Part shown: piece by piece, positions 1,090 to 34,718 of the stretch
Numbering within the stretch: position 1 is the first letter of the stretch
Layout of the letters: each line of letters starts with the position of its first letter
Assembly: GCA_031409335.1 (NCBI GenBank)
Contig: JANNWY010000180.1
Coordinates: 1 to 39,970, forward strand
Reading direction: 5' to 3'
Origin: Chthoniobacteraceae bacterium
Lineage (GTDB): Bacteria; Verrucomicrobiota; Verrucomicrobiia; Chthoniobacterales; Chthoniobacteraceae
Length of the DNA: 39,970 nt
Made by a program: the position numbers and the translations under genes
The notes under the pieces: generated by a model
What the model was told of the DNA's origin: nothing
The model's database searches: none
What the model saw: the letters and a program-made list of their open reading frames with translations, nothing else

Positions 1090-4000
1090 TTAGTTCCCGA
1101 GGAAACGCGCGTCGGGGGATTCGGCGCGGAGGTATTCGGGGAGGGTGCGCATGTCGAGTTTCACGGCGAGCGTGTGGACTCCGGCGGATAGCTCGGGGGC
1201 GAGGTCGTCGGAGAGGGCGAGTGGTTTTCCGTCGAGCCACGCTTTTCCCGCGCCGGTGATTTTCAGGCGCGTCTTGCCGCCAGTGCTTTGGAATTGGGTG
1301 ACGGCCATGAGCGTCTCCGCGCCGTTGGTGACGAACGGAGCGGTGGCTTCGAGCAGTTCTTTCACGAAGCGCCCATCGACCAGCGTGTAGCCCGCGAAGC
1401 CTGTGTCCATCGGCGTTTCCGAGCCGATCACTTTGGCGGCGTCTGCGCCGGAGAAGAGCCTCCAGACTCGCGCGACGGTTCCTTTGCTCGCGTCGTAGGG
1501 GCCGGGTTTGCCGAGTTCGCCGAGGAAGGCGAAGAGGTCGAGCCGCTCGCGATCTGGCAGCGCGTCGGTCATGCCGGCGGGCATGATGGAGCCGACGTTC
1601 GTGGTGCTGGTGATCTGCGCTTTGGCGATGGCTTGCTCTTTGCCCACCACATCGCGGAGGAAAACTTCCTGCCCGGTTTCGCGCACTTGCACGCCGGTGG
1701 CTTGCGTGCCGTCTTTGAGCGCGAGAGTCACGGCGTTGTAGCCTTCCTTCACCTTCACGGCGGGGGCGAGCGTGCTTTCGATGATGTAATCCAGCGGGGC
1801 GCTCGCGCCGAGGCTCGTCATGTCCGGGCCGACCTTGCCGCCTGCGCCGCCGATGGCGTGGCAGACGGTGCAGCCGAGGGCGGCGCGGCGGTAGATGATT
1901 TCGCCGCGGGCGGGGTCGCCGTTTTGTTTGGCGAATCCGGCGAGGGCTTTGAAATCCTTGGGCATCTTCGCTTCGGCGTCGGTCATCCCGGCGAGCGGGG
2001 TGAGGGCGGCGAGGAGTTTCGCGCCGTTCTTCCCGGCTTCGCGCGCGGCGCGGAGGCCGGCGATGGCGACGGGTTTGGGCATTTCTTTGGGAATGCTCGC
2101 GGCGAGTTTGTCGGCGGCACCTTTCACCCCGAGAACTCCGCGCCACACGTTGAGCGCGGCGTCCTCGGCGGGCTGGACGGCGAGGGCGTCGAAGGTGAGC
2201 GCGGGATTCAAATCGAGCGCGGCGAGGGCGGCGACGGCTTGTCCGCGGATCGGCGGTGCGTTTGGTGCGATGGCGAGCTGACGGAGTGCGGCGCGGGCGG
2301 GTTCGCTGCCGATCCCGCGCAGTGCCTCGAAGGCGAAGTTGCGCGTGGCGTCATCCGGCCCGGCGGTGAGCGCGACGAGGCGCGGCACGGCGGACTCCAT
2401 CTTCCAAGCGCCCGCGAGGCGGGTGGCGGTGCGGATGGTCGGCGCGTGGCCGCAGTCGAGGTAATAGCCGAGTTGATCCATCGGCTGGCTCGGGCGGACA
2501 TTGCGGAGTAAGGCCGCTTCGGTGAGCGCGGCGAGGATGCGCGGGGTGGTGGTTTCCTCGGTCTTCTTTTCCTGCACGCGCGTCCAGAGCCGGTCGATTT
2601 CCTTCGCGCCGCCGGCGGTGCCGAGGAGTTCGATCCAGGGGCCGGTGCCGTCGAGGGGGACTTTGTTTTCGGTGACGAGCCGGGAGAGCGTGGCTCCGGC
2701 GAGCGCGGGGTCGATGGCCTTGAGTCCCCATTCGAGCTGCTTCGCGCGCTCGGCGGTGTCGGCCTGCCAGGCGCCGCTGGCGATGGCGTCGGTCCACGGC
2801 TTAGCGAGGTCGTTGATGGAAAGCCACGCGGCGTAGTCGTAATACGGATCGTTCGCCGGGGCCTTGAGCGCGGCTTCGAGGACGAGCGCGGCGCTCTCGG
2901 CGGTCGGGATGCGGCAAAGGGCGCGCATGGCTTCGAGGCGGACGCGGGGATTCGTGTCCACAGCATGTCTAGCTAGCGTTCTCCAGTTAGAGTCTGATTC
3001 TTGTTTGATTTCCTTTGCCAATTCATCGTCCGATAAATCGGACCCTTTCGTCAGTGCAGCAAAGTGGGCAAATGAACTGCCAAGCTGTTTCGATCCGCCA
3101 AACCAGCGACTTAATGCACGAGCAGAAGCCATACGGACTTCCGGCGCTACATAGATTTCTATGTCGTCCTTTTTCTCCCTTACTCGGCGTGCTTCCACCT
3201 TATCGGCAAACGCTGTAGGTGAGATCTTCCAAGACTCGAGCAGTCTGAGAGTTTCGGTTTCGGCGAGATCGGATTGGACACGGAAAGCATTGAGTGCATC
3301 GGCAAACGCCTGACTTGGACGACTTACGATAACAGCCCGCGCCTGCTGCTGCTCCCACGCACTCTTGCTCAGCAGCTTCTCCAGCAGCTCCGCGTTCGTC
3401 TTCCCCAGCAGCGGCTCCCACTTCACCGGCGGCGCGTCCTTCTTCGCGATGCGCCAGATGCGGCCCATGTGTTTATCCCGGCGCGGGTCGCGGAAATCGA
3501 CTTCGCCGTGGTTGATCACCGGGTTGCTCCAATCGGCGATATACAGCGCGCCGTCCGGCCCGATGCGCACGTCGATCGGGCGGAAGCTTTGGTCGCTGGT
3601 GCGCACGAGGTCGGGCATTTCCTTGGTGATGTATCCGCTGCGGGCGGTGGAAGGGGTCAGGGGTCGGGAGTCAGGGGTAAGGTTCGCGGCGGGAGTCTTT
3701 TCTGACTCCTGACCGCTGACTCCTGACTCCTTCGACAAATCCTCGATGGCAAAGCGCACGATCCGGTGCGCGCGGAAGTCGTTCGTGATCGCATTTCCCT
3801 GCCAGTCGTCGGGGAAGTGCGGGCTGTGCATGATCTCCAGGCCGCAGAACTTCGGATAGCTCCCCGGCGACACGCTCGGCATGATGCGCCGCCCGTTTTC
3901 ATACGTGAAATACATCGCGCCCGGCACGCCCCAATTGATCCCGCCGCCGCCCGCGCCATCGGTCATGAAGGACTGCCCCCACTGATCCCACGCGTGGCCC

Positions 4001-33017: not shown

Positions 33018-34718
33018 GTGAACCGCGCGCCCTGGCTCTTTTCGATCCTGATTTTTTGCGCGCTCGCGTTCGTGATCCGTTGCTGGAATTTGCGCGACGT
33101 TTTTATCGACGATCGCATCTACTTCATCGATCCCGATTGCTACTCGCGGATGACCCGCGCCGCGTCGATCGCGGAAGGCGGCCCGCTCGTCATCCGCCAC
33201 CACGATTTCGAGAACTCGCCGGACGGCATCACCCCGCACACGACTGCGCCGATGGACTGGCTCATCGTCGCGGGGAAATGGATCGCGGATTGCGGATTGC
33301 GGATTGCGGATTTCAGCGGGACGAGCGTTTTGCGCGGGCAGACGCTCGATCTCGCGGGCGCGCTCATTTCGCCGCTGCTCGGCGCGCTGACGTGCGGCTG
33401 GCTCGCCGCGTGGGCGTGGTCCGCGGCGCGACATTCTTCGCTCGTCGCGCGCCACGCGAGTTTCGCCGCGCCGCTCCTTTTCGCCATCTCGCCGATCGCC
33501 GTGCATGGCGGCGCGCTCGGCCGGCCCGATCATCAGTCCCTCGTCCTGCTCCTACTCGCCATCATCATCGGCGCGGAAGTGCGGCTCATGCAGACGGTGC
33601 GCGAGTGGGAAAAACACGCGCGCCCACCGGATCGCCACATCGCGAAATGGTCGATCATCGGCGGCGTCGCGGGCGGCTTCGCGATGTGGGTTTCGCTCTA
33701 CGAACCGCTCGTTTTGTTCGGCGTGATTTTCGTCCTCATCGCCGCGCTCGATCGCGAGCAATTCCGCTGGCGCGAACGCTGGACCGGCTGGGCCATCGCC
33801 GCCGCCATCTACGCCGCATCGCTGCTCATCGACGGCTGGCGCATCTCGCTGCCCGACGAATCGGTGCGCACGTATTTCACGAACTGGAGCCACAGCATCG
33901 GCGAACTCGCGCATCTCGATCCGCGCGAGCCGCTGCTCTGGCATTGGTGCGGCTGGGCTGTCGCGCTCGCGCCCATCGCGCTCGGGATCGCCATTTGGAT
34001 GAAAGCGAAAGCCGCGCGCGCGGCTGGCGGCGCGCATCCGGCGTATCGGCCCGCGGCGTTCCTGCTCGGGCTGTTGCTCGTCACGTTCGGGCTCACGTGC
34101 TGGCAATTGCGCTGGGGATATTTTTTCGTGCTCGTCCTTGCGATGTCGCTGCCGTGGCAGCTCTCGGTCATCCGCCGCGCTTGGATCGCATGGACCGTGT
34201 TCCTCGTTTCGCTTTATCCCGTCGCGCAGAATTGGGAGGCGCGACTTTTCCCCGATGACGAAGCGGAGCGCAACCGCGCCGAGCAGCGCGCCGAGCGTAC
34301 GGCACTCCGCCAAATCGTCAGCGCGGCGCCGACCGGTGCATTCATCGCACCGTGGTGGCAATCGCCCGCGATCGCATACTGGACGCGGCAGCCCGGAGTG
34401 GCAGGCAGCTCGCACCAGAGCCTGCCCGGCATCGTCGATACCGCCCGCTTTTACCTCGCCGAGAAACCGGAAGACGCCGCCGCCATCTTGAAAAAACGCC
34501 GCGTCGCCTGGGTGCTCGCCGACGATGCCGAACACATCCTCGACACCTCCACCGCGCTGCTCGGCATCGAGTCCCCCGCGTTTCCGATCGCCACGATCCT
34601 CGCCGACCACCCACTCAAAGCGCCGCCGTTTCTAATGGAAATCGCCACGCCACCTTCGACGCGCAATCGCATCTTTTTCCGCCTCTACGCGGTCGAGCCG
34701 TCCGGATTTCCGCAGTAG
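33018..34718 (+). CDS. Multi-pass GT-C membrane protein, STT3/AglB-like oligosaccharyltransferase homolog (ORF opens at 32946; GTG 33018 is the likely start)
   Basis: YFIDPDCYSRMTRA, GRPDHQS, many TM helices, soluble C-terminal domain with APWWQSPAIAYW. Confidence 0.6.
   Translation: MNRAPWLFSILIFCALAFVIRCWNLRDVFIDDRIYFIDPDCYSRMTRAASIAEGGPLVIRHHDFENSPDGITPHTTAPMDWLIVAGKWIADCGLRIADFSGTSVLRGQTLDLAGALISPLLGALTCGWLAAWAWSAARHSSLVARHASFAAPLLFAISPIAVHGGALGRPDHQSLVLLLLAIIIGAEVRLMQTVREWEKHARPPDRHIAKWSIIGGVAGGFAMWVSLYEPLVLFGVIFVLIAALDREQFRWRERWTGWAIAAAIYAASLLIDGWRISLPDESVRTYFTNWSHSIGELAHLDPREPLLWHWCGWAVALAPIALGIAIWMKAKAARAAGGAHPAYRPAAFLLGLLLVTFGLTCWQLRWGYFFVLVLAMSLPWQLSVIRRAWIAWTVFLVSLYPVAQNWEARLFPDDEAERNRAEQRAERTALRQIVSAAPTGAFIAPWWQSPAIAYWTRQPGVAGSSHQSLPGIVDTARFYLAEKPEDAAAILKKRRVAWVLADDAEHILDTSTALLGIESPAFPIATILADHPLKAPPFLMEIATPPSTRNRIFFRLYAVEPSGFPQ
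33280..33312 (+). repeat. Heptamer tandem repeat (GGATTGC)n, in frame; same family as 7510
   Basis: ggatcgc ggattgc ggattgc ggattgc ggatt; encodes IADCGLRIAD. Confidence 0.85.

Follow-up and report, generated by a model that had tools for sequence, protein, structure and literature searches.

The window analysed here is a 39,970-nucleotide stretch of a Chthoniobacteraceae bacterium (contig JANNWY010000180.1 of assembly GCA_031409335.1, positions 1 to 39,970). Within and between its genes lie short tandem arrays, built from units of six, seven or nine nucleotides (nt), many of which form two inverted arms around a spacer. Each unit family of the window matches the arms of a small cassette, in which inverted tandem arrays flank a gene for a four-helix-bundle protein or a predicted GxxExxY nuclease, and the arrays are probably relics of such cassettes. 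The genome carrying the window (as its contig C180) is referred to as G000; it comprises 7.94 Mb with 62% GC. C numbers denote contigs or cassettes of G000, G001 onward the genomes of relatives, and L numbers loci. The elements of the window are as follows.

3652..3731: GGRGTCA inverted pair with a 19-nt spacer, in frame in the DUF7133 region of gene 1090-6153 (minus strand)
4302..4411: GAACRTC inverted pair (arms 38-39 nt, spacer 33 nt) that adds about 29 residues net to gene 1090-6153 and keeps its frame
5554..5713: GTAG-tagged doublet of repetitive extragenic palindromes (REP), a separate class, in frame in gene 1090-6153
6118..6148, minus strand: single hexamer arm of CTCTTC units with a TTAA variant, making up the hydrophobic core of a signal-like peptide at the N-terminus of gene 1090-6153
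6932..7010: hexamer inverted pair with a 16-nt spacer, beginning 8 nt past the stop codon of gene 6213-6923
7510..7541, plus strand: ATTGCGG left arm with a family-type spacer residue, upstream of the DUF1549 domain in gene 7048-10308
7780..7843, plus strand: DUF1549-domain loop carrying a CCGCAAT right arm (7818-7843) and an additional G-rich insert
12375..12401, plus strand: CGGAAAG single arm in gene 11923-14931, one residue longer than in G004
16936..17033: GTTGAGA inverted pair that occupies the whole atpD-atpC junction and overlaps the atpD stop codon
19371..19398, minus strand: GTTGAG single arm in the atpA-atpG junction
about 20945..20965, minus strand: decayed GTTGAG arm in the atpH-atpA junction, weak and without a call by Tandem Repeats Finder (TRF)
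core 23593-23739, outer stems about 23579..23746: intergenic inverted pair of the nonamer CGCGGAGGA
33280..33312, plus strand: ATTGCGG single arm in gene 32946-34718

The atp names are presumed from the translations. The arrays that a first-pass annotation had reported in the window are all present, the one at 20945 in weak form. Its five inverted pairs around a unique spacer (3652, 4302, 6932, 16936 and 23593) were recovered as well, and seven arrays lie, as it had counted, within called genes. All elements of the window are gene-less.

Tandem arrays were sought genome-wide with TRF, and rows with at least three copies were kept. A single replicate of a null genome, composed of codon-shuffled genes and shuffled intergenic DNA, served as the control. 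G000 yielded 350 rows of period 7, 176 of period 6, 96 of period 9, 26 of period 8 and 7 of period 5, compared with 7, 15, 18, 9 and 0 in the shuffled genome, an excess far above chance. Among the 636 merged arrays, the next neighbour within 3 kb is inverted for 122 and direct for 22, and the spacer is shorter than 100 nt in 108 of the 122 inverted cases. Thirteen hand-defined unit families account for 440 of the merged arrays, which were grouped into 348 elements, namely 92 pairs and 256 single arms. The dominant unit differs between genomes, being GAACATC in G000 and GAACGTC in G007. Contigs from two runs of one study (X1 and X2) show no differences to the window across several arrays; they match positions 6119-7008 (both runs), 10823-12635 (X1) and 9525-12633 (X2). 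An assembly artefact is thus an unlikely source of the arrays. This falls short of a proof for each single array, as the window is nowhere covered end to end by one contig and the source sample may itself be one of the two runs.

Two long-spaced inverted pairs in G000 enclose TIGR02436 four-helix-bundle genes. The layout of such a cassette is left arm, gene, right arm, with inverted tandem arrays as the arms. Its gene encodes either a four-helix bundle (PF05635/TIGR02436), with units of six or seven nt, or a GxxExxY predicted PD-(D/E)XK nuclease, with units of eight or nine nt. Both gene types had been suggested beforehand as candidates to be found between such arms, and both were found there in G000 and its relatives. 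The C205 and C4 proteins score above the Pfam cut-off for PF05635, and the C155 protein matches PDDEXK_3/TIGR04256, the GxxExxY family, a nuclease as predicted from its sequence. All eight TIGR02436 genes of G000 have periodic flanks, with several different units. When the flanks were compared with 100 shuffles, their inversion surpassed every shuffle at seven of these eight genes (in one or the other of two flank tests) and at 47 of 64 four-helix loci, a set that excludes short-flanked loci and matches covering fewer than 70 profile positions. Every shuffle was also surpassed at 23 of 30 GxxExxY loci, with a period of 8-10 in 21 of the 23, while the baseline set of random short genes gave 9 of 192. 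The four-helix counts are conservative, since the fixed flank windows overlooked arms visible by eye (C205 in one flank test, C229 in another).

The association extends beyond G000. In the clade around C205, for which 79 of 80 loci were used and one was dropped, inverted arms occur at 76 of the 79 loci. The unit SAACRYY is kept at 50-76% protein identity, mostly in chains of five to six units; the unit pattern forced the AA, yet 189 of the 192 control genes gave chains of at most two. The records are labelled Verrucomicrobiota, Desulfobacterales, planctomycete, Nitrospinia and Armatimonadetes, and the closest named relatives of the cassettes are Chthoniobacteraceae and Spartobacteria records. 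The flanking open reading frames (ORFs) of the clade fall into 53 and 48 clusters among 77 and 76 flanks, figures that shadow ORFs may inflate. On the tree of four-helix loci, the units cluster with the protein clade.

Gene-less arms can be traced to cassettes. The outer flank of C205 is present on 65 of 154 arms of the GAACATC family and on none of 286 other arms, and the TTAA variant of the C4 cassette occurs on 12 of 19 CTCTTC arms. In G000, gene-less pairs are about ten times and single arms about thirty times as numerous as cassettes. For every unit family in the window a cognate cassette is known: the four-helix-bundle gene L114 (G007) for the GGRGTCA/GGGGTCA arms, C205 and C297 for the pair at 4302..4411, C4 for the hexamer pair at 6932..7010, L102 (G007) for the ATTGCGG arms, C143 for the CGGAAAG arm, L061 and L064 for the GTTGAGA/GTTGA arms, and the GxxExxY gene C155 for the nonamer pair. 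In the nonamer pair, the outer stem is extended and the inner hairpin, TCACC..GGGTGA, is conserved. Gene 6213-6923 was considered as cargo of the arrays at 6118 and 6932 and rejected, since these arms point away from the gene and no Pfam family matches its product.

RAYT, the other candidate gene proposed, was rejected as a partner of the tandem arrays: a family array lies within 1.5 kb of none of 11 Y1 hits, and Y1 goes with the separate REP class. A true REP/RAYT class coexists with the arrays in G000 and in the window, and its GTAG-REP motif has 70 matches genome-wide. The doublet at 5554..5713 is the gene-less counterpart of a RAYT cassette that lies whole and in frame in G000 C107, and it is absent from G003, G014, G024 and G018.

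A comparison of orthologous sites had been proposed to define empty sites and target duplications; the former were found, the latter were not seen. Four G000 cassettes (C205, C297, C318 and C229) were looked up in five relatives, and three have a clean empty site in a congener: C205 (G003, G006), C297 (G003) and C318 (G003, G006). The C205 cassette is a 596-bp addition at a stop-start overlap, and its edges carry a GTGA/ATGA stop-start overlap on both sides, which function alone would demand. At C297 the arm starts at the stop codon, and at C318 an arm takes the place of the last codons of the upstream gene and provides its stop. At the C229 site, G002 retains the right arm only. In the window, the atpD-atpC junction is empty in G002, the site being 90 nt longer in G000, and the atpA-atpG junction is empty in G002 and G003, from which 46 nt are absent. 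A few host bases are replaced at these junctions and nothing is duplicated; no target-site duplication was seen at 16936, 19371, C297 or C318. The decayed arm at 20945..20965 is common to G002 and G003 and missing in G004. For the sites at 6932 and 23593, the ortholog-pair comparison recovered no ortholog pair.

Most elements lie outside genes: 306 of the 440 family arrays are intergenic, and 69 of the 348 elements are coding in a genome of which 85% is coding. Of the 92 pairs, 57 stand between co-directional genes, with median distances of 8 nt from the preceding stop and 20 nt from the following start. The idea that the elements are designed for in-frame insertion has to be given up, as pair lengths modulo 3 are flat (30/35/27, n=92). 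Relative to single arms, pairs are also depleted in coding DNA (9 of 69 elements there, compared with 83 of 279 elsewhere; p = 0.004). The in-frame copies are thus survivors rather than a design.

In-frame insertion into protein loops, as the first-pass annotation had described it, applies to the pairs, while single arms mostly overwrite host codons. Pairs in genes add 21-38 residues in three of four cases, whereas single arms, which are 9-14 residues long, change the length by at most four residues in 10 of 15; a comparable homolog, mostly a paralog, was available for 19 of 63 coding elements. Both tandem pairs of gene 1090-6153 lie in loops of variable length in an alignment of nine orthologs, on which the loop claim rests, the predicted structure of the domain with two inserts (mean pLDDT 45, nine sequences) being set aside. 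At 3652..3731 the loop exceeds its shortest orthologous counterparts by about 25 residues; G004, G006, G022, G009, G013, G024 and G018 have short loops, and G001 has a pair with GAAGGTC units in the same loop. At 4302..4411 the loop of G001 holds a different element, palindromic and of the IS200/Y1 type. The elements of G001 in these two loops are thus unrelated to those of G000.

The single arms point to replacement. The region with the arm at 6118..6148, which presumably serves as part of a signal peptide, has the same length as in the G001 ortholog, which implies that the arm replaced earlier sequence. At 7510, G002 has an arm of ATTTCAG units with equal length and in the same register, and at 12375, G003 carries a GAAAACN version in register. 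The arm at 33280 causes no length change relative to two G004 homologs, its array being perfect in G003 and decayed in G002. In the DUF1549 loop (7780..7843), an arm is captured by pattern in 7 of 20 paralogs, with two unit families, and some of these arms derive from one ancestral event. The arms at 7510 and 7818 are unlikely to be a single element, as the two sites are occupied independently in paralogs and in G002. Single coding arms are biased toward the orientation that yields a hydrophilic peptide (16:1 for GAACATC arms, 20:10 for ATTGCGG arms), and translation is thereby implied. One GAACATC arm (G000 C204:8047-8071) lies at a frameshift in a DUF1549 gene.

The arms of different copies are alike and their spacers are not (87% and 37% identity, respectively, among 13 elements). 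The median arm length is 29-33 nt in twelve families and 38 nt in the GAACATC family, with 3.7-5.5 copies of the unit. Spacers of the GAACATC family peak at 32-33 nt in length, yet almost all are unique, with 2 of 561 spacer pairs scoring at least 0.8; the nonamer family is a partial exception to spacer uniqueness. Variants tend to be mirrored between the two arms, with 153 identical mirrored deviations and 168 joint deviations where 29 are expected, an excess inflated because the best-fitting register was chosen and because some variants come from the parent element. One pair, C145, is chimeric.

The shared design of the cassette arms and the presence or absence of elements at orthologous sites agree with the earlier suggestion of an active origin rather than slippage. 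We consider it probable that the arrays are relics of small selfish cassettes of the four-helix or GxxExxY type, whose spread occurs at the DNA level, is of a replacement type and is filtered by protein tolerance. In such a scheme, the cassette protein, a pentameric ring in the four-helix case, would bind its own unit, a step that we consider rather likely. Arms would then enter a site through recombination-like DNA replacement, and a new arm could overwrite a resident arm or a host stretch resembling it; we hold this to be slightly more likely than not. Selection would retain the copies that leave an open frame and a working protein, so that hydrophilic, 7-residue-periodic peptides persist in loops and some arms turn into host helices or signal peptides. 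To our knowledge, the four-helix protein has no catalytic activity, for which reason we guess that cutting and joining are left to the host recombination system or to a GxxExxY nuclease acting in trans.

Several observations weigh against this scheme. The grouping of units with protein clades shows co-inheritance, which is not by itself recognition. A solved relative of the four-helix protein, Xcc0516, is a homopentamer (2GSC, five chains), and one unit per subunit of a five-membered ring is an attractive notion; an arm length of about 30-33 nt across most unit sizes fits a length ruler equally well. Since the spacers are unique, there was no burst of identical copies, and simple copy-and-paste fails to explain the elements. 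No gene-less pair was found at the orthologous sites of the four cassettes. Only one of the four GxxExxY genes of G000 (C155) has clear tandem arms, and G003, a genome 80% complete, contains GAACRTC and ATTGCGG arrays with no TIGR02436 match.

A length-neutral change could equally result from an insertion followed by deletions that selection has trimmed, and this leads to the main rival explanation. Whole cassettes or pairs would be inserted in an ordinary way, either in trans (for example by a GxxExxY nuclease) or by horizontal transfer with flanking homology, whereupon random deletions and selection restore a near-native length, so that the overwriting is apparent only. The residues added by pairs, the lone arm left at the C229 site in G002 and the degenerate partners of single arms (on the expected side for 83 of 241, compared with 43 on the other side) are in keeping with it, and the whole RAYT cassette with both arms in frame at C107 demonstrates that such a path exists, for a different element. 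The unit swaps at 7510 and 12375 are harder to reconcile with trimming. They are in frame and in register with the next spacer residue retained, whereas unit-by-unit turnover of heptamers would frameshift, as seen once at C204. The chimeric pair C145 and the equal-length replacement of the signal-peptide core at 6118 also speak against trimming, and we regard this rival as rather unlikely. An explanation at the RNA level appears improbable. By analogy with the intervening sequence (IVS) of 23S rRNA, the hairpin in the mRNA would be a target of RNase III cleavage or of binding by the four-helix protein, and the element would process operon transcripts or remove itself, with a regulatory role. 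The Coxiella IVS combines the same protein with heptamer repeats, a 28-bp stem and RNase III excision (PMC4990558, in the part of the text consulted). The position of pairs between co-directional genes would suit this explanation, as would their depletion in coding DNA, which is expected if long stems cause the mRNA to be cut. However, mismatches on the sense strand show no bias toward RNA-strand pairing (G-T to A-C 45:46, 64 pairs), and gene splitting, with 4 of 184 co-directional elements compared with 5 of 600 controls, does not exceed control rates once inspected, as one hit was false and two were apparent pseudogenes. The hydrophilic orientation bias and the large share of single arms (256 of 348) do not fit either. 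An RNase III motif matched no protein among the G000 gene calls, a result that carries no weight either way. Incidental cleavage of intergenic pairs by RNase III may still occur.

Two further explanations deserve much less credit. In a retro-element route, the four-helix protein would act like Avd of diversity-generating retroelements (DGRs) and recruit a reverse transcriptase (RT), with hairpin cDNA overwriting targets and error-prone copying scrambling the spacer. Such a route would account for both the unique spacers and the replacement, and at C149 G000 does encode an RT of the DGR type next to an Avd-like gene. DGR RTs mutate adenines, which is at odds with an AAC core as the most conserved part of the commonest unit. 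Avd and PF05635 are homologs, and in retrohoming a homologous target is replaced (PMC10053308, as far as its consulted part goes). Yet no family array lies within 1.5 kb of either of the two RT loci and none of the eight cassettes is on an RT contig, which makes this route very improbable. A passive origin, with slippage building the tandem units, template switching making and polishing the mirror arm and no dedicated element involved, is largely refuted and hardly credible as the origin. Mirrored variants are what arm-to-arm copying would give, and unique spacers agree with it as well, but the small set of units common to up to 154 loci, the family-specific outer flanks, the tie to two gene families across phyla and the clean empty sites are all left unexplained. 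Slippage and template switching may act as a secondary polishing process.

Among known systems, the REP/REPIN-RAYT pair is defined by arms that flank an HUH Y1 (RAYT) gene. The elements described here likewise have inverted arms that enclose a small gene, numerous dispersed doublets and singlets of the arm without the gene (92 pairs and 256 singles) and an arm sequence specific to the family. They differ in that the arms are 6-9-nt tandem arrays, whereas REPs are single short palindromes, the gene encodes a four-helix bundle or a PD-(D/E)XK protein instead of an HUH Y1 enzyme, and the spacers are not conserved. ORF-bearing 23S rRNA IVSs of Coxiella and Leptospira (S23p/PF05635; Warrier 2016, PMC4990558, consulted in part) share the protein family, the inverted ends forming a stem and tandem heptamers just upstream of the ORF. 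The eight cassettes and the window elements, however, lie between or inside protein genes, the cassettes at stop-start junctions of protein operons and with many unit families; hundreds of copies are gene-less, some in coding frames, and the mismatch and split-gene tests give no sign of RNA-level excision. [quoted passage not shown] In none of the eight cassettes was an RT with template and variable repeats found beside an Avd-like gene, as in a DGR.

As dispersed short tandem heptamer arrays, often in inverted pairs, the elements belong to the descriptive class of short tandemly repeated repetitive sequences (STRRs). Rickettsia palindromic elements have conserved interiors and are not tandem arrays; the elements here have a unique interior and a known parent cassette, and their single arms take the place of host sequence where the Rickettsia elements add to it. 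Palindromic elements of about 100 nt that stand in frame in protein genes and add peptides, such as those of Rickettsia, are a likeness in this respect (Delihas 2011, PMC3184786, a review consulted in part). Heptamers in Xanthomonas (GGGAATC) and Nostoc are likewise dispersed as arrays and form close inverted pairs in 70 and 75 cases; 7-11% are intragenic in Xanthomonas and a higher share in Nostoc (Rehm 2015, PMC4692102). The consulted part of that paper reads its repeats as quadruplex-forming and names no gene partner, whereas the units here are mostly not G-quadruplex-like. In the P6b stem-loop of the Nostoc trnL intron, the stem is also built on a heptamer motif, and one of two motif classes has repeatedly and independently been replaced by the other in place (Kaasalainen 2015, PMC4476775). 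This concerns one non-coding site, with no protein partner named in the part consulted, while replacement here takes place in coding frames. Two other sources (PMC5524665 and bioRxiv 2021.01.26.428298) make passing mentions only in the parts consulted. The parts have thus been described separately; a connection, as a class, between these genes and inverted tandem arms was found in no paper of a literature from which most subscription papers were outside reach.

By their defining features, the elements are not IVS, REPIN or MITE; they work most like a REPIN-RAYT pair made of IVS-type parts, and there is a fair chance that a new mechanism is behind them. The contribution of G000 is that many families coexist in it, that empty sites are clean and that coding sequence has been replaced at unchanged length. 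The excess of heptamer repeats, the role of the 23S-IVS four-helix-bundle protein and the role of GxxExxY nucleases are thereby tied together, and one binding assay could test all three because each protein clade predicts its unit. The data point to the cassettes as one source of the long-unexplained 7-base repeats of bacteria. They also reveal a route on which mobile DNA, by replacing host sequence instead of inserting into it, supplies working protein parts such as loops, a stretch like a helix or the core of a signal peptide, and repeat-type peptides in Verrucomicrobia-like proteins are better read as repeat relics than as conserved motifs. More tentatively, and still rather doubtfully, a widespread selfish class may exist in which a small ring protein reads a clade-specific unit code and promotes short-patch DNA replacement by arms, rewriting resident arms and similar host sequence in place, also within genes. 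Bacterial heptamer repeats, rRNA intervening sequences with an ORF and 7-residue-periodic peptides in proteins would then all stem from this class.

Some further observations concern related elements. The upstream flanks of longer GxxExxY proteins at G000 C30, C126 and C246 are palindromic in another way and not tandem. At G000 C11, C42, C83, C91, C92, C261 and C288, GAACATC arms stand tail to tail at a distance of 65-68 nt and enclose a second, small inverted element with GCA-triloop mini-hairpins (CCGCAGG, GCGCAGC). A kinase-like pseudogene at C72:18112-18505 contains several arms in loops. The C318 junction is a hot spot for unrelated inserts: its orthologous site is occupied in G002 (L263) by a toxin-antitoxin-like pair and in G004 (L264) by other genes together with a palindromic element of the IS200 type. 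RAYT/Y1 domains are fused in frame inside long host proteins at C107 (L125), C92 (L126) and C96 (L127); the C107 fusion retains both REP arms in frame, and the hosts at C92 and C96 are presumably CarB and RecG, judging by their motifs. The DGR-like locus at C149:31593-38655 combines an RT and an Avd-like ORF with a stretch resembling a template repeat, has two neighbours of NACHT/FGE-like type and lacks a family array within 1.5 kb.

In the window itself, a decayed GAATGCG-like arm lies at the atpG-atpD junction (18441-18474) and is also present in G003. At about 4686-4990, gene 1090-6153 has some 100 residues more than its G014 ortholog, a region that we take to resemble a small secretin/STN-like domain. 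A palindromic doublet, CACGGGCT..AGCCCGTG, stands at 1027-1090 between convergent genes, and its motif has 11 matches genome-wide. The stretch between gyrA and gyrB (28093-30263) has a lower GC content and holds small ORFs, an AAA_33/Zeta-like ATPase (28713-29291) and a protein with an Mrr N-terminal domain (29298-30263). Finally, a PIN-domain gene with an upstream antitoxin-like ORF lies at the contig end (39253-39970).

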